Assembly: GCA_035534895.1 (NCBI GenBank) | Contig: DATLRC010000006.1 | Coordinates: 11,983-75,982, forward strand | Source of the DNA: Candidatus Dormiibacterota bacterium | Lineage (GTDB): Bacteria > Patescibacteriota > Saccharimonadia > Saccharimonadales > UBA4665 | Length of the DNA: 64,000 nucleotides | Reading direction: 5' to 3' | In this document: one piece after another, positions 5,472-59,200 of the stretch | Numbering within the stretch: the first letter of the stretch is position 1 | How the letters are laid out: each line of letters begins with the position of its first letter | Program-made: the position numbers and the translations under genes | The notes under the pieces: model-generated | Seen by the model: only the letters and a program-made list of their open reading frames with translations | What the model was told of the DNA's origin: nothing | The model's database searches: none

Positions 5472-5544
5472 AGACAGTAACTAATTATAGCGGAGACGCT
5501 CAAACAATGCTGTTGTTTAATTATGTAATGACAGAACTTTAATG

Positions 5545-6054
5545 TTAGAGTGCGGCTTCTAGGGCTGCCCATTCGGCGGTCGAGTCGTCTTCTGGTAAGT
5601 TGACACTGACTTGATCTCCTGGTTTTGCTTTGAAGTAGGTAACACTAGCTAACAGGACACGAAATTTCTTATCACCAACGTCCACGAAATAATGGCCGTT
5701 TTCCAATATTAGACTACCTACAACTTGCTTACGTGGAACCGGTCCGATTTGTTTGTACAAAAAAGTTCCGTCGTCGGCAATCGTTAATTTTAGAATATCT
5801 CCTTGAACCAATTTGGACTTTGAAGCGTAGTTTGCTGGTACGGGATAGGTTTTGCTGTCCGATCCGACCATATTTTGACCGTCGAAGACACCCTCAATAA
5901 CCTTGCCTATTGTATCCTCTCGCGATACAGGCTGTACTTTCTCATCATCACCAACTAAGCTTATCAAGAGCTCAGTAGCTGCAGCTAAATTTGTTTCAGC
6001 GTCTTGTATAAGAGTTCTCAAACGCTTAATTTGTTTTTCAGGAACATCCGCCAT
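5545..6054 (-). CDS. Hypothetical protein (N-terminal helical segment plus a beta-rich C-terminal part)
   Basis: 169-aa ORF with no competing frame and no motif I recognise. A candidate promoter lies upstream. Confidence 0.65.
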   Translation of the reverse strand: MADVPEKQIKRLRTLIQDAETNLAAATELLISLVGDDEKVQPVSREDTIGKVIEGVFDGQNMVGSDSKTYPVPANYASKSKLVQGDILKLTIADDGTFLYKQIGPVPRKQVVGSLILENGHYFVDVGDKKFRVLLASVTYFKAKPGDQVSVNLPEDDSTAEWAALEAAL

Positions 6055-46599: not shown

Positions 46600-46839
46600 T
46601 TAACTACTAAATTGTGGCCTATTTTCGTTATTGGGCGCTTCTTTGGGATCATTTGAAAAAACAACTGTCATTGCATCAATGCGGTCTGTGAAATTCGGTG
46701 AATCAAATGCAGTGTAGACTTCATGATCTTGGTCAACTGTCTCATCAATCTTTGATATCGGGCCCAAGTCGTGGCTACCATGGTCATTGACAGGGCTGAG
46801 CTCTGGATTTTTGGGTCCTGGTTGGTAAATCAATGACAT
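46600..46839 (-). CDS. Hypothetical small acidic protein (79 aa) between tuf and rpsJ
   Basis: The ATG lies 5 nt after the tuf stop, and the ORF fills the gap on the operon strand. No recognisable motif. Confidence 0.55.
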   Translation of the reverse strand: MSLIYQPGPKNPELSPVNDHGSHDLGPISKIDETVDQDHEVYTAFDSPNFTDRIDAMTVVFSNDPKEAPNNENRPQFSS

Positions 46840-46844
46840 CAGTC

Positions 46845-48029
46845 TTATTTCACTATCTTGGTAACAACACCTGCTCCAACGGTTCGGCCGCCTTCACGAA
46901 TTGCAAAACGCAATCCTTGATCCATGGCAATTGGAGCTAACAATTTGACCTTAAAAGTAATTGTGTCGCCTGGCATGACCATTTCTTTATCAGCCGGAAG
47001 TTCGACTTCACCGGTGACGTCAGTCGTTCGGAAATAAAACTGAGGCTTATATCCTTTAAAGAACGGTGTGTGGCGACCGCCCTCTTCCTTAGTTAAGATG
47101 TATACTTCGCTGTCAAATTCAGTATGTGGCGTTATAGTACCTGGTTTTGCTAGTACTTGTCCGCGTTCAATATCGTCGCGTTCAATGCCGCGCAGCAGGA
47201 CACCAACGTTATCACCGGCTTGACCTTGATCAAGATTCTTTTTGAACATTTCAACACCGGTAACTACACTTTTGGTAGTCGGTCGAATACCGACAATTTC
47301 AATTTCTTCATTAACTTTAACAATTCCTGTTTCGACACGTCCGGTAGCTACTGTGCCACGACCCTTGATCGAGAAAACATCTTCAATAGGCATCAGGAAT
47401 GGTTTTTCTAAATCGCGCTTAGGCTCTGGGATGTAATCATCCATGGCTTTAACTAGTTCCATGACAGCATCTTCATTTGTTGCGTCACCTTCAAGGGCCT
47501 TGGTAGCTGAGCCACGAATTATTGGGCAATCACGGTCAAATTCATACTTGGCCAGCAAGTCTCGAATTTCTTCCTCAACTAGATCAACTAGCTCAGGATC
47601 AGCAAGATCCATTTTATTCATGAAAACCAAAATTTTAGGTACACCAACTTGGCGAGCTAGCAAGACATGTTCACGAGTTTGGGGCATCGGACCATCAGCA
47701 GCAGAAACTACTAAAATGGCGCCATCAATCTGGGCTGCTCCGGTAATCATGTTTTTTACATAATCTGCGTGACCAGGCATGTCGACGTGAGCATAGTGCC
47801 GTTTATCAGTTTCGTATTCCTGATGAGAAGTCGCGATGGTGATTCCACGGGCTTTTTCCTCAGGGGCATTATCAATCTGATCATAAGCAACTGGCTTATT
47901 GATGTTGCTAGGTAGTTTTTTTGCAAGAACAGACGTTATAGCAGCTGTTAAGCTGGTTTTACCGTGATCAACGTGTCCCATCGTACCGACGTTAACATGT
48001 GGTTTACTGCGGTCAAAGTTTTCTGCCAT
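46845..48029 (-). CDS. tuf: Elongation factor Tu
   Basis: [22 protein letters not shown] and NKMD GTPase motifs. 394 aa. Confidence 0.98.
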
Positions 48030-48157: not shown

Positions 48158-48421
48158 TTATGTTGAGCTCTGAGTTTGTATGCCGCGAGAGCGATTAGCC
48201 AACTTAGATGCTCGAGTGACTAGAGCGTTCTCGGCCGCGTTGTAGCTATCATGGACTCTGATTGGGTTGGGACTCTCAGCACTAATCTGATTAAACCACT
48301 GCTTGTTATAGTATCTGATTAGTCCAACAAGTGCCTCATCGGGCAAGCAGCTCAGCTCATTACGAAAATGGCCTGCTTCATCTTGAGGTATGTAGTGCTG
48401 GGTTGTTTCGTGGTTAGGCAT
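48158..48421 (-). CDS. Hypothetical small protein (87 aa) between fusA and tuf
   Basis: The ATG lies 11 nt after the fusA stop, and it is the only ORF filling the gap. No recognisable motif. Confidence 0.5.
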   Translation of the reverse strand: MPNHETTQHYIPQDEAGHFRNELSCLPDEALVGLIRYYNKQWFNQISAESPNPIRVHDSYNAAENALVTRASKLANRSRGIQTQSST

Positions 48422-48432
48422 AGTTATATTGT

Positions 48433-50520
48433 CTACTTGCTATTTTTAGCAATTATTGCCTCTGCTACATTATTAGGTACATCGGCATAATGATCAAGTT
48501 CCATACTTGAACTGGCTCGGCCTTGACTCATGCTTCGCAAGTTAGTTGTGTAGCCAAACATTTCACCTAAAGGCACGAAAGCGGTAATTTCTTTAATGCC
48601 TGGATTAAGGTCCTCCATGCTTTCAATGCGACCACGCTTGGAGTTTAGATCACCTATTACATCACCCATAAATCCTTCGGGTGAGATGACAACCACTTTC
48701 ATAACTGGTTCAAGAAGTACCGGGGAAGCCTTCTTGACACCTGCTTGGAGAGCCATTGAGCCGGCAATCTTAAAGGCCATTTCGCTAGAATCAACATCGT
48801 GGTAGGACCCGTCATAGAGCTCAGCTCTGACATCAACCACAGGATAGCCGGCCAATACTCCGTTAGACATTGCTTCTTCAATGCCACTCTTAACGGCAGG
48901 GATATATTCGCCAGGCACAACGCCACCTTTAATGGCATTTATGAATTCAAAGCCTTTACCGACTTCGTTCTGACTTAATCGGAGCCAGACATCGCCATAT
49001 TGGCCACGGCCGCCGGATTGACGGATGAATTTGCCCTGAACTTCAACTCCATCACGCCGGATCGTTTCACGGTAGGCGACTTGAGGTTGGCCAACATTGG
49101 CTTCGACATTAAATTCTCTCTTCATGCGATCAACAATTATTTCAAGATGTAACTCGCCCATTCCCGAAATTATGGTTTGGCCAGTTTCGTCATCAACACG
49201 AATTCTAAAAGTCGGGTCTTCTTCGGCCAGACGTTGCATGGCTAAGCTCATTTTTTCCTGATCGGCTTTAGTTTTTGGTTCAATGGCTATGCTAACTGGC
49301 GGTTCTGGGAAAGTAATGCTTTCTAGAACAATCGGCGAGCTTGGATCAGACAGAGTATGTCCGGTGGTTGTTCCCTTCAGGCCAACTATTGCCGCAATAT
49401 CTCCGGCACCAACTGAACTGACATCTTCGCGCTTATCGGCTTGCATGCGAACAATTCGACCGACCCGCTCTTTTTGGCCTGTCGAGCTATTTAAAATGTA
49501 ACTACCGGCGTCCAGTTTTCCGGAGTAGACTCTAAAATAGGCTAGTTTGCCGACAAACGGATCAGTAGCTATTTTGAATGCTAAGCTGGCAAAGGGCTGA
49601 GATACATCTGGGTGACGCTCAATCTCATCTCCAGTTTTGGGATGTACGCCCCAGGTTGAACCCCTGTCAAGAGGGCTAGGCAATAGATCGATCACGGCAT
49701 CGAGCACCTTTTCAACTATAACGCCACGTCCGTCACCGCCGCTAACAGCAAAGAATTTACCAGTTAAGACTGCTGTCCTGATAGCTTGATTAATTTCCTC
49801 CGTAGTCAAGCCTTCCTCGCCAACTTCAAGGTATTTCTCGAGCATCGCCTCATCTTCAGCAACTGCGTTTTCAACTAGCAAAGAACGGTATTTAGAGACT
49901 TTATCCATCATCTCGGCCGGGATTTCAGATTCAACTAGTTGATGATCAGTAAACTCTTTATAGCTATAAGCTTTCAAAGTAACCAGGTCGACGATGCCAT
50001 TAATCGACTGTTCAAAACCAATTGGCAAGTGAATCGGAAAAGCCCGTTTACTTAAGCGATGGTGTATTGAGTCTAGGGACTTATAGAAATCCCCGCCGGT
50101 CTGGTTGATCTTATTAATGAAACAGATACGTGGCACACCGTACTTGTCTGCTTGTCGCCAGACAGTTTCAGATTGAGATTCAACGCCCATTTTGCCGTCA
50201 AAGACTACTACTGCCCCATCTAAAACTCTTAAAGACCGCTCCACTTCGACAGTGAAGTCAATGTGTCCCGGAGTATCAATAATATTGATCTGATGATTTT
50301 TCCAATAGCAGGTCACAGCAGCCGAGACAATAGTGATGCCCCGTTCTCTTTCTTGGTCCATCCAGTCAGTTGTTGTTTGTCCTTCATGAACTGCCCCAAT
50401 TTTGTGCTTTAGACCTGTTCGGTAGAGGATACCTTCTGTAGTTGTCGTTTTGCCGGCATCAATGTGAGCAATAATACCGATGTTACGAATTTTTTCCATT
50501 GCTGTTTGCTTATCTGCCAT
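48433..50520 (-). CDS. fusA: Elongation factor G
   Basis: I set the start at the ATG at 50520 ([26 protein letters not shown]), which has AAAGGA 7 nt upstream. The ORF track extends 12 codons further. Confidence 0.97.
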
Positions 50521-50533
50521 TTTGAATCCTTTA

Positions 50534-50722
50534 TTAGCCTGTTGAGGTGTCGTCATTATATTGGTTTGGGTCTTGAGCCAGTTGATCTATTAGAAAGTCT
50601 AGGTTAAATCGGCGCAGAGGCCCTGATTTCTGGCGCTCTGCTTCAAGTGCATCGTAAGCTGTTAGCTCAACAATTGATTGAGGGCTTATTTGTGTTTCAT
50701 GAGCAGCTCGTTTCGGTTTCAT
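50534..50722 (-). CDS. Hypothetical small acidic protein (62 aa) upstream of fusA
   Basis: The ATG overlaps the stop of the preceding ORF (ATGA). Its 3' end carries the fusA Shine-Dalgarno. Confidence 0.5.
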
Positions 50723-51183
50723 CAGTTCAACCTCGTAGCCGTGTTGACTGTTTCAAAGATAGCTTGAGCGGCGAGTAAATCAAGAAGTTTTAGCTGTTGG
50801 TCTGACAATTGATTGTAGTTTCGCTCACCTTGAGGAAATATTGATGTCACGTCTTTATTAACTCTGGTCATCTGGACCATTGATCGACGACTAGTCTTGG
50901 TCGGTAATAAAACACTACTGTAGGTGCTTCCGTCTTTTCGATCAAAGACCAGTAGCTGTAACAATTGACCGTCAGGTACTCGACTAAAAGGACCGCTGAC
51001 TGATTTCTCGACTTCATAGCCAGCTCTTATGCGAACGTTTTGATTGTTTTCAGTAGGCTCCTCTGGAATATAAACATATCTTTGATTTGGGCCAACCCAA
51101 GTTGGACTATTGCCAATGTCAACCCGAGCAAGTTGTTGTTGGACATCTTCAATCGAACGGACAGGAACTGTGAACAAACCCAT
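50722..51183 (-). CDS. Hypothetical protein (153 aa) downstream of rpsG
   Basis: I chose the ATG at 51183 (MGLFTVPV), 1 nt after the rpsG stop. The longer ORF-track start would overlap rpsG by 101 nt. Confidence 0.6.
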   Translation of the reverse strand: MGLFTVPVRSIEDVQQQLARVDIGNSPTWVGPNQRYVYIPEEPTENNQNVRIRAGYEVEKSVSGPFSRVPDGQLLQLLVFDRKDGSTYSSVLLPTKTSRRSMVQMTRVNKDVTSIFPQGERNYNQLSDQQLKLLDLLAAQAIFETVNTATRLN

Positions 51184-51184
51184 A

Positions 51185-51664
51185 TTAACCTCTTGCAAAG
51201 TGGGCAAAAGCCCGGTTAGCTTCGGCCATTTTGTGGGCGTCTTCACGTTTTTTAACAGCAGTTCCTTGGTTGTTATAGGCATCAATCAGTTCGGTAGCAA
51301 TGCGATCGACCATGCTCATACCCCTTCGAGAACGGGCAGATTGGACAAACCACATGGTGGTCAGGTGATTTTGGCGTTGGCCTCTCACTTCAAAGGGTAT
51401 CTGGTAATTTGCTCCGCCAACACGTCGAGACCGGGTTTCCATGTGAGGTTGAATGTTGTTCATTGCCTTCTCGAAAACTTCAAGGGGGTTCTGGATTTTG
51501 AGCTTATCAGCCGCTTTTTGCATGCCGTTATAAACAAGTTTTTCAGCCAGTTGTTTTTTGCCATTGCGCATAACTCTGTTAATCAGGCGAGAAACTTGAA
51601 CATTCTGATAAAGGCGGTCTGGTTTTATGTCTCGAACTAGTGCTTTTGTGACTTTTCGGGGCAT
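51185..51664 (-). CDS. rpsG: 30S ribosomal protein uS7
   Basis: MPRKVTKALVRDIKPD...NAFAHFARG is canonical S7. Confidence 0.97.
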   Translation of the reverse strand: MPRKVTKALVRDIKPDRLYQNVQVSRLINRVMRNGKKQLAEKLVYNGMQKAADKLKIQNPLEVFEKAMNNIQPHMETRSRRVGGANYQIPFEVRGQRQNHLTTMWFVQSARSRRGMSMVDRIATELIDAYNNQGTAVKKREDAHKMAEANRAFAHFARG

Positions 51665-51894
51665 TAGATCACTCCTTTCAGGATTGGCTCAGGTGGTGGT
51701 AGGCTGAGGCAAGCACTTTGGCCCAAGGCTACGGTTATATCCCATGGACAGCTTGTTTTGTTTGCAGCTTCTGGATCTTCTTGAACGTAAACCTCAAGCC
51801 ACTCCTGGCATTGCTCAGGGGTTAACGGATAACCATTCTGACGGTTGGAGTCGCAATCTTGTCGGCTAGCGCAATAAGAGATACCTTTAGCCAT
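51664..51894 (-). CDS. Hypothetical small acidic protein (76 aa, 5 Cys) between rpsL and rpsG
   Basis: The ATG directly abuts the rpsL TAA, and its own TAA overlaps the rpsG ATG (TAATG). No recognisable motif. Confidence 0.55.
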   Translation of the reverse strand: MAKGISYCASRQDCDSNRQNGYPLTPEQCQEWLEVYVQEDPEAANKTSCPWDITVALGQSACLSLPPPEPILKGVI

Positions 51895-52308
51895 TTACTT
51901 TGTCTCTTTCTTGGTGCCGTATTTAGAACGGCCATTAGTGCGGTTAGTGACACCTTGAAGATCAAGACTACCGCGAACAATATGATAGCGAACGCCTGGC
52001 AGGTCTTTGACTCGACCTCCACGAACAAGAACCACTGCGTGTTCTTGAAGATTATGCCCTTCGCCACCAATATATGCCCAGACTTCATAGCCATTAGTCA
52101 ATCGTACGCGAGCCACTTTACGTAAGGCCGAGTTTGGTTTTTTAGGTGTCTTGGTGGTCACTTTGACGCAAACTCCGCGCTTAAATGGACCGGCCTTTTC
52201 GTAGTTCCTGGTCTTTAGGTTATTAGTTACGCGTTGAAGAGCTGGCGACTTTGTTTTGGTCGTCTGCTTGACTCTGGGCTTACGGATTAATTGGTTAATA
52301 GTTGGCAT
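51895..52308 (-). CDS. rpsL: 30S ribosomal protein uS12
   Basis: [12 protein letters not shown]...[16 protein letters not shown] is canonical S12. GAAGGAG Shine-Dalgarno. Confidence 0.98.
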
Positions 52309-52431: not shown

Positions 52432-55400
52432 TTAATCATCACTTTCAATTGTTTGTTCGGCCTCGGCCTTGTAACCCGTGCCAACTGGTATCTTACGACC
52501 AAGTATAACGTTCTCCTTGAGGCCAAACAGACGATCTATCTTGCCGCTTGTTGCGGCGCTAATTAGAACGCGAGTCGTGTCCTGGAAAGAGGCAGCACTT
52601 AAGAATGAGTCGGTGCTTAGCGAAGCTTTTGTTATGCCCAGTAATAATTGGTTGCATTTGGCAGGTTGTTTTCCCGAGGCAACTAGTAGCTCATTGGCCT
52701 CGGCGACAGCTAGTTTGCTGACAACGTCTCCAGTTACAAAATCACTATCTCCGGCTTCTTCTATTTGAACCCGTGAAAACATTTGACGAACGATTATCTC
52801 TAGGTGTTTGTCGGCTATGTTTTGGCCTTGAGCTACAAATATCTTCAGGATTTCGTTCATGATGTAGCGCTGAGTAGCTTCAACACCTTGTAAGCGCATC
52901 AAGTCTTGTAAATTGATGGAACCATTAGTCAATCGTTGTCCAGCAATAACCCGGTCTCCGTCTTTAACTACCAAGTGTTTAAAGCCTGGTATTTCGTAAC
53001 GCATAACACTTTGTTTGGTTGGTGTAATAACAGCCCCTTTACTGGTCAGCTCTAGTCGTCCGGACATTGGGGCAACCAAAGGCTCTGAGCCATCTTCTAG
53101 AGCAGCAATGACGTCACCGACCATGACGTCTGAGCCACTTGCAATTTGTGCCTTGCGTTCACCGAGACTAAGTTTAATTGTCTCCTTAGTGTCAGCTGTG
53201 ACTTGAACGATATAGTGGTCGCCCTCTTCCCAAGCGTTGACCAGACCAACAATATCACTATGATAAGCTTGGCCTTTAGGGGTGCGGACTTCAAACAATT
53301 CTTCAACACGATTCAGTCCCTGTGAGGTGTCATCAGCAATTACAGCACCCGAACGGTGCTTTGAGTCAAGAGAAAGTTGGGTACCGGGTTCACCAATACT
53401 CTGAGCGGCAATAACGCCGATAGGATGATGGTCAACAACCTTTTCGCCAGTCGCTGGGTCAAGACCGTAAGATTTCTGAGCTACACCTCGAACTGAAGTT
53501 GAACTTAGGGCGCTCATGATTCTAACTCCGTCAACTGATGTGTCAGAATCTATTTTCTCGGCAATTTCGTGAGTTATAATTTGTCCCTTTTTCGAATAAG
53601 TCGGGATGTTAACAGCCGTATAGCGTCCTTCTAGACGTGATCCATAGGAAACTCCTATTTCTTCAGCGTCTGCTCGGAGCATTGCGAATCCCGGATCGGT
53701 AGACGTGCTGTCGTCCTCAAGAGTGAAGACATCTTGGGCAACATCGACTAGGCGACGTGTTAGATAACCGGCATCAGCTGTCTTGAGAGCAATGTCTATC
53801 AGCGCTTTGCGTGTTCCACGTGTGCCAGTAAAGTATTCTAGGGGGTCAAGTCCATGGATGTATCCAGATTTGATGGGTAGCTCAATGGCGTTGCCGGCCG
53901 CATCTGAGAAAACGCCAAGCATGCCAACACACATTTTTAGTTGTGATATGTTACCTCGGGCTCCGGAGGTAATAGCAATGGCCATAGATGAATCTTGATC
54001 AACCATCTGACTAGCCAATAAGTCTAGAACTTGAGTTTCAATTTTAGTCCAGTTTTCGACAGTTAGGCGATAGCGTTCTTCTTCGGTAATGAAACCTTGC
54101 TCATACTGGCTGGAAATAGCCGCACTGCGAGTTTCTCCTTCATCAACTAGTGGCTCCATCCCCTCAATAGATGAAAAGTCACCCATGCCCATCGACAACC
54201 CAGATTGAGTGGCATAGTCAAAGCCAAGGTCTTTAAGATTATCGGCGATCAAAGCTGTTTGGTCTTGTCCGTAACGGGCATAGACGTCGGCCATGACTTT
54301 TTGGAGACGTTTTTTGGTCATTGTCTCGTCGTGGAATGGGAAATCTTCGGGAAAAGTTTCATTGAACAGAAAGCGACCTAGTGTTGTTTGGCGTATCTCA
54401 TTTCGGAAAGGTAGGCGAACGCTTGATTGGAGCTTGATGTGTCCAGCATCCAGGGCCATTATTGCTTCAGATAGGTCAGCGTAAGCTCTAACTTTCTTTT
54501 GGCTGACACCAGGACGATCGTATGTCAAGTAGTAACAACCTAGAACAATGTCTTGCTCAATATGGAGTATTGGTGAGCCGTCTGCTGGTTTTAGGAGGTT
54601 GTGATTAGCGGCCATAATCTCGCGGGCCTCATTTTGAGCATCATCCGATAGCGGCAGATGAACGGCCATTTGGTCACCATCAAAGTCAGCATTAAAGCCT
54701 TTACAAACTAGGGGATGAAGTTGGATGGCCCGTCCTTCGATTAAAACTGGTTGAAAAGCTTGGATACTTAAGCGGTGCAACGATGGGGCACGGTTAAGCA
54801 AGACATACTTGCCCTTGATAACCTCATCAAGTGCGTCCCAGACAACTGTTTCTCCAAGTTCGATCAAACGACCAGCACTACGGATATTGTGCGCGTGCTC
54901 CTCTGCAATTAACTCACCAATAACGAAAGGCTTGAAAAGTTCCAGAGCCATCATTTTAGGCAAACCACATTGATGAATTTTTAGTTCAGGTCCAGCCACA
55001 ATAACAGACCGACCAGAATAATCAACTCGCTTACCAAGAAGATTCTGGCGAAAACGACCTTGTTTTCCTTTCAACATATCGCTTAAGGACTTCAGTCGGC
55101 GGCGTTGGCCAGTGGCTGCAACTGCCCGTCCACTGCGAGCATTATTGTTATCGATCAGAGCATCGACTGCTTCTTGTAGCATTCGTTGTTCATTGCGACG
55201 AATTACTTCAGGAGCATTTAGTTCGATTAATTTTTTTAGTCGGTTGTTGCGATTGATGACTCGGCGGTAAAGGTCATTAAGGTCACTGGTTGCAAAACGT
55301 CCACCAGTTAGCTGGACCATTGGCCGAAGATCAGGGGGGATTACCGGCAAGACACTTACGCAGGTGCTACTTGGGCGAATACCGGCTCGATCCATGCTTT

Positions 55401-56250
55401 CCAAAAGTCTCAAGCGCTTCATGATTCGCTTCCGGCGTTGACCTTTTGCTTCCTCGGCTTCTGTAGTCAATGATTTAATTAATTGCTTTAGGTCAATGCC
55501 GTCTAATAGATCCTTGAGAGCAGCACTTCCCATGCCGACACTAATTAATCCGCGAACCTCGTCTGGCAAACTTCGATATTCAGTTTCACTGATCAGATTC
55601 AGCTTTTCAAGGGCTTTGAGTTGATCACGGAGCACTTCAAAGTCTTTGCTAACTTCTTCTGTCTCGTGGCTTTGCATTTCGGCAAGAGCCTTTAGATTGG
55701 CCTTGTCCTTAGCTGCCTCAGCTTCGTAACGGAGCTTGATAGCTTCCTTAGCAGCGGCAAACTCTGCTTCTTTATCTGCTAGAAGTTTCTCTTTTTTGGC
55801 GTTATCAACGTTCTTGATGATGTAGCTGGCAAAATAAGCCACCCGTTCCAAGTTTTTGACTGTCATACCAAGAAGCAAGCCCATGGCACTTGGTGTACCA
55901 CGCAAGAACCAAATATGGGCAACCGGTACAGCTAGACTGATATGGCCCATTCGTTCCCTTCGGACAATACTTCGTGTAACAAGTTCACCGTTTTTATCAA
56001 CTGCTGCTTCGCGTGAGCGAACTCCCTTATATTTAGCGTCATGAGGATTGATGTCTTTGACTGGGCCGAAGATTCGTTCACAAAATAAGCCATCACGTTC
56101 AGGCTTTTGAGTTCGGTAATTTATTGTTTCTGGTTTAGTCACTTCGCCGTAGCTCCAGTCGAGAATATCTTCTGGGCTGGCAACAGCCAATCGTACAGCA
56201 TCAAAATCAGCAATATCTGTTCCTTGTGTTGAATAACGTGAAGGTGTCAT
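52432..56250 (-). CDS. rpoC: DNA-directed RNA polymerase subunit beta'
   Basis: [12 protein letters not shown] catalytic motif. I set the start at the ATG at 56250, 1 nt after the rpoB stop. The ORF track extends 11 codons into rpoB. Confidence 0.97.
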
Positions 56251-56251
56251 T

Positions 56252-59200
56252 TTATGCTGCCTCCTCTTCCTTAATTTGATCATCAGCGGCTGTTACTAGA
56301 GCACTATTGTCATCAGTTAGATTAAGATCATCGTCCAGAGACATAATCGTGAACTCATCAGCTACGGCTTCTTCTGTTACATCAACTTCGGAGGCCGAGG
56401 CTTGAGGTACTTCAACGGCCACTGGATGAGTCGCTTCTTCATGGATGTTGGTAGCCAAAACGTTCTCTGCATCAATCACTTTGTTGGATTGGACAAGGTC
56501 AACTTTAAGGCACAAGCCCTGAAGTTCTTTAACTAGAACATTGAAGCTTTCAGGGACTTTAGGACCAACAATTTCGGTACGTTTGATAATTGATTCGTAG
56601 GCCTTACTGCGACCGTAGACATCATCGGACTTGATGGTCAGCATTTCTTGCAGGGTGCTAGCAGCACCGTAAGCTTCTAGTGCCCAGACCTCCATCTCAC
56701 CGAAACGTTGGCCTCCATTTTGGGCTTTACCGCCCAGTGGTTGTTGAGTGACCATGGTGTAGGGGCCTGTCGAGCGAGCGTGTATTTTGTCGGCTACCAT
56801 ATGGTTTAGCTTGATCATATACATACTTCCGACTGTCGTCCGCTCCATAAAGGCATCGCCATTACGCCCATCATAAAGTTGTTGCTTACCGTCTTCTGGC
56901 AGGCCGGCTTCCTTAAGTAATTGACGAATTTTTGCCTCTGGCACGCCATTGAATGACGGGCTGGCAACCTGCATACCAAGAGCTCGAGCAGCCATTCCAA
57001 GGTGAGTTTCAAATAATTGGCCAATGTTCATTCGTGAAGGAACGCCTAAGGGATTCAAGATAATGTCAACTGGCGTACCGTCAGCCATAAACGGCATATC
57101 TTCAACGGCTAGTATCCGCGCTATGACACCCTTATTTCCATGTCGTCCACCTAGTTTATCGCCAACAGCAATCTTACGCATTTGGGCCACAAAAACCTGG
57201 ATTTGCATTAGTACGCCCGCTTTAAGTTCATGACCATTTTCTCGGCTAAAGACTTTTACGCCTACCACTTTACCGTGTTTACCGTTACTCATACGCTGTG
57301 AGGTGTCTCTGACTTCTTTGGCCTTTTCACCAAATATGGCTCTCAGCAAGCGTTCTTCGCTGGAAAGCTCTTGTTCTCCCTTTGGAGTAATTTTTCCGAC
57401 AAGAATGTCTCCGGGGTGAACTTCGGCACCAATCCGCACAATGCCGTCCTCATCTAGATGTCTAAGTGTTTCTTCTGAAACATTAGGTATGTCACTGGTT
57501 ACAATTTCTGGCCCCAGTTTTGTTTCTCGAACCTCGATCATGAAGTCAACAATATGAACACTGGTCAAGGTGTCGTCTTCAACCAGTTTGCGCGAAATAA
57601 TGATAGCGTCTTCAAAGTTATAGCCGGCCCATGGCATAAAAGCGACAATTAGATCCTTACCCAGAGCTAGCTCGCCGCCCGAGATAGACATTCCTTCGAT
57701 CAATACATCGCCAGCTTTGACTTTATCCCCTGTGTTAACGACCACTTTTTGATTGATTCCGGTACCTTCGTTGCTGCGTACAAAATGCTGTGGTTGATAA
57801 CTGGCCTTAGAATCTTTATAGAGGACAATGACTTCTTGGGCTGATGCCTTAAGCACTTCGCCTGGCCCTTCGGCCAATATAACCTGACCAGTGTTACGCG
57901 CAGCAACTGACTCTAGGCCGGTACCAACGATTGGTGCCGACGGTTGAATCAAGGGAACTGCCTGGCGTTGCTGGTTACTGCCCATTAGTGAACGGTAAAC
58001 GTAATTTTTCTCTATAAAAGGGATCAGTCCGGCGGAAGAACCAATAATCTGGTTGCGTGCTGCATCCATATAGGTCACGTCATTGGCATCAACTTCGCCG
58101 GTTTTTAATTTGAAGCGAGCGCTGACACGTTCGTTGATAAAGTAACCGTTTTCATCAAGCTGGTTACCACCACCGGCGATGACTGCTGACTCTTCTTCAT
58201 AGGCGTCAAGGTAAACTATATCAGCTGTTACCTTTGACTTTACGGGCCAAGTTACCTGTGAGCTGACTCGAGCTAGTTTTTGAGCATCGGCCGAGCTTAT
58301 TTTCTTGCCTGCACCGACAATAACTTTACCTTTTTCGTCTTCTAGGTCTACAGCTGCTATGTATCCGGTTGATTCCTTTGCAGTTACGGCATTAATAACC
58401 TTACGGTATGGTGTTTCAATAAAACCGTAATCATTAACTCTGGCATAATTTGCAAGATTTAGAACTAGGCCAATATTGGCTCCTTCTGGGGTTTCAACTG
58501 CACATATCCGTCCGTAGTGGGTGGCATGGGCATCGCGGACTTCAAAACCGGCACGTTCTCTAGACAGACCACCAGGCCCCATTGAACTTAAACGACGCTT
58601 GTGAGCCAGCTCACTGAGTGGGTTAATCTGGTCCATGAATTGTGATAACTGAGAACTGGCAAAGAATTCACGAACAGCAGCAACGATGGGACGGGCATTA
58701 ATTAACTGACCCGGTTGGACAGTCTCTATTTCAGACATTGACATCCGGTCTTTGGTATTGCGCTCCATACGTAGCAGCCCGATTCGAAATTGACGCTGTA
58801 CTAGTTCACCAACTAATTTGACTCTTCGGTTAGCCAGAGAATCAATGTCATCAGCTGGTTCTTGGGTGTTATTAAGGCGAATTATTTCGGCGATAATAGC
58901 TTCTAGATCTTCTAGTCTAAGAACTCTGTTTTCGATAGTGTTAGCTACATCGAGATCTAGTCGTTTGTTAATTTTGTAACGTCCGACACGACTGAAATCG
59001 AAGCGTTTATAGTTATAGAACATATTTTCGATAAGTGATCGAGCATTGTCAACCGTTGCCAGGTCACCAGGGCGCAAACGACGATATACCTCAATAAGTG
59101 CTTCATTTTGACCTCGACTTGGGTCTTTTAGTAGTGTCGCATCCAAGTAATTAAGCTTACCGCTGTCGACATGCTTGAATGCCTCGCGCATCCCAGTTTC

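Follow-up and report, generated by a model that had tools for sequence, protein, structure and literature searches.

Two ORFs between rpsG and fusA

The str operon (rpsL-rpsG-fusA-tuf) on the Saccharibacteria (TM7) contig DATLRC010000006.1 carries two extra open reading frames (ORFs), orf153 and orf62, between rpsG, which encodes ribosomal protein S7, and fusA, which encodes EF-G. The analysis covers a 64,000-nucleotide (nt) stretch of this contig, referred to as the window, in which the str operon genes lie on the minus strand and which sets the coordinates used here (Table 1). The rpsG-fusA gap measures 664 nt and is filled end to end by orf153 and orf62, as an earlier, sequence-only reading of this DNA had reported. 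Both ORFs are probably genuine accessory genes that occupy a hypervariable slot of the operon.

The stop-to-start distances are 1 nt from rpsG to orf153, −1 nt from orf153 to orf62, and 13 nt from orf62 to fusA. The first of these matches the sequence-only reading. The coupled arrangement it described for the second also stands, but the overlap is a single base within TGATG and not a 4-nt ATGA. Similarly, orf62 does end 13 nt ahead of the fusA ATG, but the Shine-Dalgarno sequence of fusA lies in the spacer and not, as had been stated, within orf62. Shine-Dalgarno-like motifs are found 5–8 nt upstream of all three starts. For fusA, tblastn alignments to the EF-G proteins of relatives start at MADKQ, which rules out an upstream in-frame ATG at 50556 that would overlap orf62 by 23 nt. 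Both ORFs share the strand of rpsG and fusA and the geometry of str-operon cistrons, from which co-transcription and translational coupling are predicted.

Table 1. Features of the str operon in the window and large-gap loci of related species (last five rows, in the coordinates of each locus)
Feature	Position	Strand	Remarks
rpoC	52432-56283	-	
rpsL	51895-52308	-	
orf76	51664-51894	-	rpsL/rpsG junction ORF
rpsG (ribosomal protein S7)	51185-51664	-	upstream conserved flank of the slot; Pfam Ribosomal_S7
Shine-Dalgarno-like AAGAGG (orf153)	51194-51189	-	within the last codons of rpsG
rpsG stop TAA	51187-51185	-	single spacer base 51184 next
orf153	50722-51183	-	153 amino acids (aa); cassette gene 1; ATG 51183-51181, TGA 50724-50722
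Shine-Dalgarno-like GAGG (orf62)	50734-50731	-	
orf153/orf62 overlap	50722	-	1 nt, TGATG
orf62	50534-50722	-	62 aa; cassette gene 2; ATG 50722-50720, TAA 50536-50534
Spacer	50521-50533	-	13 nt; second in-frame TAA and fusA Shine-Dalgarno; read from sequence
Shine-Dalgarno-like AAGGA (fusA)	50531-50527	-	
fusA (EF-G)	48433-50520	-	downstream conserved flank of the slot; ATG 50520; Pfam EF-G domains
orf87	48158-48421	-	
tuf	46845-48029	-	
orf79	46600-46839	-	between tuf and rpsJ
L045	7765-8178		
L053	5569-6528	-	
L053	7310-8299		
L073	6041-8338		
L059	7480-9099		

The neighbors of the slot in the window include rpoB, rpoC, rpsL, and tuf. The flanks are highly conserved: S7 of the window is 79–86% identical to S7 from 80 Saccharibacteria/Saccharimonadales species, and EF-G is 80–90% identical across relatives. 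Independent samples from JGI and SRA yield identical assemblies of this DNA, and these identical copies offer no polymorphism to analyze; the source samples include JGI 3300031671 and SRR8554501. The window contains no paralogues or repeats. In a consensus scan only, promoter-like sites (11 against 9.7 expected) and terminator-like sites (5 against 7.1 expected, none inside the gap) occur at the level of shuffled sequence. Between 46000 and 53000 there is no Rfam match at E (expect value) <= 1, and hence no match to a curated autoregulatory or leader RNA.

Coding potential of orf153 and orf62

In 200 shuffles of the gap, no open frame as long as the observed one arises. A dicodon model trained on the conserved genes of the window gives in-frame scores of +0.17 for orf153 and +0.31 for orf62, while the other five frames all score between −0.2 and −0.9. 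Both values fall inside the range of held-out real genes (0.005–0.39). Spurious nested ORFs (n = 28) have a 95th percentile of 0.085 and a maximum of 0.21; orf153 outscores 27 of them and orf62 all 28. The guanine-plus-cytosine (GC) content of orf153 at codon positions 1, 2, and 3 is 0.54, 0.39, and 0.36, compared with 0.57, 0.39, and 0.38 in host genes. The gap as a whole has a native composition (GC of 0.431 versus 0.439, with a dinucleotide signature in the normal range), and recent foreign DNA is rejected as its source. The shuffle and dicodon tests agree that chance frames are improbable, in line with the rough estimate made earlier. orf153 is very likely a real gene, and orf62 is probably a gene without any homologue.

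Properties and homologues of the two proteins

The product of orf153 is soluble, lacks cysteine, and has an isoelectric point (pI) of about 8. Its sole relative is P0003, a 146-aa protein with 33% identity over 104 residues (E of 3e-14 in pairwise BLASTP and 5e-4 in the whole-library search). The two proteins have in common the N-terminus MGLF.V..S...VQ.QLA and the motifs WVG.N and YIP.E. P0003 is encoded on a 915-kb Saccharibacteria contig (L083) at the same junction, 1 nt past the rpsG stop and 15 nt ahead of fusA, in a locus that lacks orf62, orf76, and orf87. The alignment of P0003 with orf153 runs end to end, which rejects the possibility that orf153 and orf62 are one frameshifted gene. 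The syntenic homology by which the sequence-only reading proposed to judge the pair is thus found for orf153, while orf62 has no homologue and is absent beside P0003.

With orf153, 5.8 billion clustered proteins were covered by a word-indexed search and 1.8 billion representatives by a full HMMER search; a profile of orf153 plus P0003 was also run against the 5.8 billion proteins. No homologue beyond P0003 was found in the protein libraries, viral contigs, metagenome contigs, or a phage/plasmid tblastn search, and a hidden Markov model (HMM) of the two proteins detects no hidden relatives among all slot ORFs. A further candidate from the HMMER search, P0002, was rejected as a chance match to WD40 repeats, and an MGLF start in common with L041 is not supported. 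For orf153, there is no match in Pfam, NCBIfam, PHROG, or PADLOC at E <= 1 or among PDB sequences. An AlphaFold2 model built on the two-sequence alignment is unusable, with a predicted local distance difference test (pLDDT) score of 42.

Synonymous sites are saturated between the window and P0003 genomes, with a proportion of synonymous differences (pS) of about 0.8. Between orf153 and P0003, the proportion of nonsynonymous differences (pN) is 0.54 and the nonsynonymous divergence (dN) is 0.95, while dN for S7 and EF-G is 0.12–0.13. The dN of orf153 is 7–8 times that of S7 and EF-G, yet it stays under saturation. A pN below saturation while synonymous sites are saturated argues that the protein is constrained; orf153 evolves fast but under constraint. 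The two carriers are not close: in EF-G identity to the window, the P0003 genome comes 46th of 57, and the EF-G tree places it in a different clade. In the nearest neighbors of the window in that tree (L021 and L070), the junction is closed and holds no ORF. The idea implied earlier, of a conserved, translation-linked pair that follows a clade, does not survive this distribution.

The 62-aa product of orf62 is acidic (pI 4.8) and also lacks cysteine. AlphaFold2 predicts a helical hairpin at residues 22–50 with unstructured tails (pLDDT of 72). No homologue was detected in the 5.8 billion proteins or in viral or metagenome contig scans, no fold match is significant (best Foldseek E of 4.6), and there is no match to PDB sequences or, at E <= 1, to Pfam, NCBIfam, PHROG, or PADLOC. 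The statement that neither ORF has a recognizable domain is borne out by these searches.

The rpsG-fusA slot across Saccharibacteria

The gap was measured in related species with both genes present. The junction had been called normally tight; this is true of bacteria generally, but not of this phylum, where the gap spans −1 to 4591 nt and its median is about 330 nt. It is at least 150 nt in about 80% of the related species examined and at most 62 nt in only 11, and about 55 other species have unrelated ORFs at this position. Across 51 gaps of 150–1400 nt, one sense ORF takes up a median of 91% of the gap, as compared with 55% for antisense ORFs and 45% for shuffles, and sense coverage exceeds antisense coverage in 44 of the 51. 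The cassettes have a common geometry: the start lies no more than 12 nt past the rpsG stop in 43 of 47 (median of 2–3 nt) and is ATG in 44 of 47, and the last stop precedes fusA by about 12 nt (median). Their sequences are highly diverse, with only two BLASTP pairs among 81 slot ORFs and a Pfam match in only five of these.

The largest gaps (2.9–4.6 kb) contain recognizable accessory genes, namely a stand-alone ORF with a CdiA_C toxin domain (L045), two RimK-like ATP-grasp proteins, a GDPD-domain protein, and a PKD-domain protein. A literature search yielded no description of the slot. In Southlakia epibionticum ML1, the S7 gene (453190-453669) and the EF-G gene (450636-452723) are separated by 466 nt in which no gene is annotated (PMC10633639 supplementary file 1); this slot may hold an unannotated ORF. 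In the same strain, fusA is not followed by tuf (PMC10633639).

Two further junctions of the operon accept additional ORFs. The rpsL-rpsG junction is closed in 55 of 76 species and spans about 160–340 nt, mostly 200–270 nt, in 20 of 76; the fusA-tuf gap is at least 150 nt in 26 of 33 species. Among the 122 ORFs of the three slots taken together, there are only five small clusters. In the window, the S10, spc, and alpha operons (28–46 kb) contain standard genes only, with 0–20 nt spacing and no extra ORFs, and the phenomenon is thus confined to the str operon.

In the window, orf76 fills the rpsL-rpsG junction exactly, with a 0-nt gap to rpsL and a TAATG overlap with rpsG. Its product has a pI of 4.3 and five cysteines, and its coding score is weak (−0.04). 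The rpsL-rpsG ORFs of 13 relatives have a common cysteine layout, Cx4-6C...C...CP. orf87 starts 11 nt past the fusA stop, and neither orf87 nor orf79 has a Pfam match.

Composition of slot proteins

Shared properties were assessed on 118 ORFs shorter than 200 aa from the three junctions of L001–L082. The median pI of slot proteins is 4.7–5.6 versus 8.3 for other window proteins, and cysteine makes up 2% of their residues versus 0.4%. Cysteine counts are bimodal: 30% of the proteins lack cysteine and 33% contain at least four. CxxC occurs in 19 slot proteins (6.5 ± 2.4 in shuffles), CxxCP in 12 (0.36 in shuffles), and CP dipeptides number 49 (12.3 ± 3.4 in shuffles). About one third of slot proteins resemble a four-cysteine scaffold class. 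An HMM of the four-cysteine rpsL-rpsG ORFs recovers its training sequences only, and a single four-cysteine family spanning the slots is not demonstrated. Both orf153 and orf62 belong to the cysteine-free set. The composition points to a cargo of diverse accessory proteins, in part a cysteine-scaffold class.

If the pair were a conflict module of two genes, be it a type II toxin-antitoxin system or a polymorphic toxin with its immunity protein, orf153 would be the toxin and orf62 its neutralizer. Two small genes with a 1-base overlap are suggestive of such a module, as is the size, acidity, helical character, and floppy tails of the orf62 product. Immunity proteins tend to be small and acidic, as are many slot proteins, and the slot of one relative contains the CdiA_C ORF. 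However, neither window ORF matches a toxin, antitoxin, or defense family, and promoter matches do not exceed the shuffle expectation in a way that would suggest separate, autoregulated expression. The P0003 gene, the sole orf153 homologue, has no partner and is followed by fusA after 15 nt, which is hard to square with a toxin. A toxin-antitoxin or immunity pair is disfavored because the orf153 homologue stands alone, which makes this explanation decidedly unlikely. Specifically, a type II toxin-antitoxin pair is opposed by the lack of a recognizable toxin or antitoxin domain and by the fact that the partners are not inherited together (L083 has no orf62-like gene), and a CdiA-CT/CdiI-type pair by the lack of a toxin domain in the window ORFs.

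Selection and turnover

Pairs of close species show how cassettes evolve. L044 and L049 (EF-G 98.8% identical) have two fusA-tuf cassettes in common with nonsynonymous-to-synonymous ratios (dN/dS) of 0.02 and 0.07 at a synonymous divergence (dS) of about 1.5, which indicates strong purifying selection. At rpsG-fusA, the same pair differs by the clean presence or absence of a 92-aa four-cysteine ORF (5475-5495 in L044 versus 5484-5762 in L049). In the carrier, L049, fusA has lost its ATG; its start is a TTG overlapping the stop of the cassette, and fusA there is therefore probably dependent on coupling.

L040 and L042 (EF-G 99.6% identical) both carry an rpsG-fusA cassette at 5482-5799 with a dS of 0.095, compared with 0.65–1.86 for the flanking rpsL, rpsG, and fusA. 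The dN/dS of this cassette is 0.53, and two older cassette pairs have values of about 0.29. The rpsL-rpsG cassettes of the same two species have about 50% nucleotide identity. These values suggest that the L040/L042 rpsG-fusA cassette is far younger than its flanks, through recent transfer or replacement between species. An insert less diverged than its flanks is seen in L040/L042 only; L044/L049 show the opposite, consistent with vertical descent.

These data bear on two explanations in which the peptides themselves do not matter. In the first, the ORFs are spacers whose frame is kept open to couple translation to fusA and to avoid Rho-type polarity, with functionless peptides. The extreme sequence turnover between species, the lack of an orf62 homologue, the dN/dS of 0.53 in L040/L042, and the coupling-dependent TTG start of L049 are all compatible with this idea. 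It is disfavored because of the protein-level constraint: orf153 and P0003 retain 33% identity and a conserved N-terminal motif despite saturated synonymous sites, and other slot ORFs have dN/dS values of 0.02–0.07. Protein-like GC at codon positions and the non-random acidic pI and cysteine motifs of slot proteins also count against spacers, and the 11 species with gaps of at most 62 nt do not need one. Functionless spacer ORFs are thus unlikely.

The second explanation, a non-coding spacer with open frames that arise from chance or from a gene-calling artefact, is largely refuted and highly improbable. It can draw on the missing homologues of orf62 and on the fact that PGAP left the 466-nt gap of S. 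epibionticum unannotated (PMC10633639 supplement). It is contradicted by the shuffle tests and the strand asymmetry over 51 species, the coding scores, the syntenic homologue, and the purifying selection on other slot ORFs.

A conserved role in translation, as part of the core machinery, is unlikely, and a conserved cofactor of the ribosome or EF-G is disfavored because slot content turns over. The reading implied by the earlier note is a lineage-specific accessory factor of translation that would, for example, bind or protect S7 or EF-G. In its favor, such a factor would be produced together with S12, S7, and EF-G, and these operon products are classic antibiotic targets. Cultivated Saccharibacteria live as epibionts on Actinobacteria (PMC10633639). 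However, the conservation of S7 and EF-G (80–90% identity) should hold a binding factor conserved, while slot content is unrelated between species and empty in 11 of them, and no FusB-type or other known domain is found in Pfam, NCBIfam, or PDB sequences. A translation accessory factor is accordingly rated very unlikely, and the missing FusB-family domain match speaks against a FusB-type EF-G protection protein in particular.

Comparison with known systems

Four known systems resemble the slot in part. (i) In SAR11, hypervariable region 2 (HVR2) is an island that spans 48 kb, encodes cell-surface biosynthesis, and has an anomalous AT content (PMC2217521). In one strain pair, HVR2 shows greater similarity than the remaining genome, which has been read as spread by homologous recombination through conserved flanks (PMC2217521). 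As in HVR2, the slot places variable genes between extremely conserved translation genes without attC or mobile-element signatures, and the L040/L042 cassette is less diverged than its flanks. Unlike HVR2, the cargo consists of one to few tiny ORFans of native composition, inserted seamlessly (0–13 nt junctions) inside one essential, coupled operon.

(ii) Chromosomal hot spots normally lie between transcription units, and phage morons bring their own promoter and terminator. The str cassettes are likewise accessory genes at a few fixed positions whose content differs between close relatives, but they borrow transcription and translation initiation from the ribosomal genes. (iii) The E. coli str operon (rpsL-rpsG-fusA-tufA) is translationally coupled, with a few tens of nt between rpsG and fusA and an S7-binding RNA between rpsL and rpsG. 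Gene order and the dependence of downstream cistrons on upstream translation are alike; in contrast to E. coli, Saccharibacteria intercalate extra cistrons, and no RNA element was found by the Rfam search.

(iv) Integron cassettes are also promoterless single ORFs that are highly diverse, mostly without assigned function, and served by an upstream promoter. Exchange at the str slots is, however, most plausibly homologous and not site-specific. An integron cassette is rejected for the window, where no inverted or direct repeats (no attC) bound the ORFs and the junctions, at 1, 0, and 13 nt, are too short to accommodate a recombination site. No link to an integrase is seen near the slot, although no integrase-directed search of the whole contig was made. 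The slot is best described as a hypervariable hot spot with conserved flanks that is seamlessly embedded in an essential operon, previously undescribed in the literature found.

Proposed mechanism

With a probability of roughly 0.68, orf153 and orf62 are genuine lineage-restricted accessory genes in a hypervariable cassette slot of the str operon. Judging from the geometry, neither gene would have a promoter or terminator of its own, and both would be transcribed with the operon. Ribosomes would pass along a termination-reinitiation chain from the rpsG stop through orf153, orf62, and the Shine-Dalgarno spacer to fusA; with such a coupled chain, insertion would not interrupt EF-G expression. 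On comparative grounds that concern the relatives of the window, cassettes appear to be gained, lost, and replaced even between very close species. Homologous recombination via the extremely conserved flanks, rpsG and fusA, is the most likely route in a phylum with natural competence, with probable fast divergence after exchange. Saccharibacteria are naturally competent, and linear DNA with homology arms of about 1 kb recombines (PMC10633639). The products may be small soluble cytoplasmic proteins with a strain- or lineage-specific role, for example in binding, immunity, or conflict, a suggestion made with low confidence.

Several points weigh against this interpretation. Both genes are known from sequence alone, and the case for orf62 consists of coding statistics and context. 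orf153 lacks a usable fold model, so no functional inference can be tied to its fold. The acidic four-cysteine character that many slot proteins show is missing from the window ORFs. A single pair of relatives, L040/L042, supplies the recombination signature, and no close relative of the window was found that would extend it to the window's own cassette. Vertical descent with extreme divergence could explain much of the missing similarity. Finally, the 80 comparison genomes were picked by S7 similarity to the window and cover this part of the phylum.

A broader and more tentative proposal, possible but on balance doubtful, is that the str operon serves as a platform for cassette expression. 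Hypervariable small proteins, many of them acidic and of the four-cysteine/CxxCP type, would be swapped between species by natural transformation and homologous recombination through the genome's most conserved genes, expressed at ribosomal-protein levels through translational coupling, and engaged in an arms race. The three or four seamless slots involved may be rpsL-rpsG, rpsG-fusA, fusA-tuf, and perhaps tuf-rpsJ. Candidate functions may include immunity to toxins or antibiotics of actinobacterial hosts or competitors that target S12, EF-G, or EF-Tu, as well as anti-phage activity and host manipulation. Such a platform would be an integron-like solution without an integrase.

Biological implications

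Essential ribosomal operons are usually deemed the most static part of a genome. Here, fast-turnover ORFans are found within one, in genomes of about 1 Mb, and the translation of EF-G appears wired to pass through them. The interest of the slot stems from this clade-wide pattern more than from orf153 and orf62 themselves.

Gene callers may miss slot genes, and S. epibionticum ML1, with its unannotated gap, is genetically tractable. The spacing between rpsG and fusA could serve as a strain marker, and efforts to engineer Saccharibacteria would find in the rpsG-fusA slot a natural insertion site that is well tolerated and highly expressed. If the slot proteins do have a function, which the selection on several of them indicates, they would rank with the accessory proteins that these epibionts express most strongly and would be prime candidates for strain-specific interactions with hosts, phages, or competitors.

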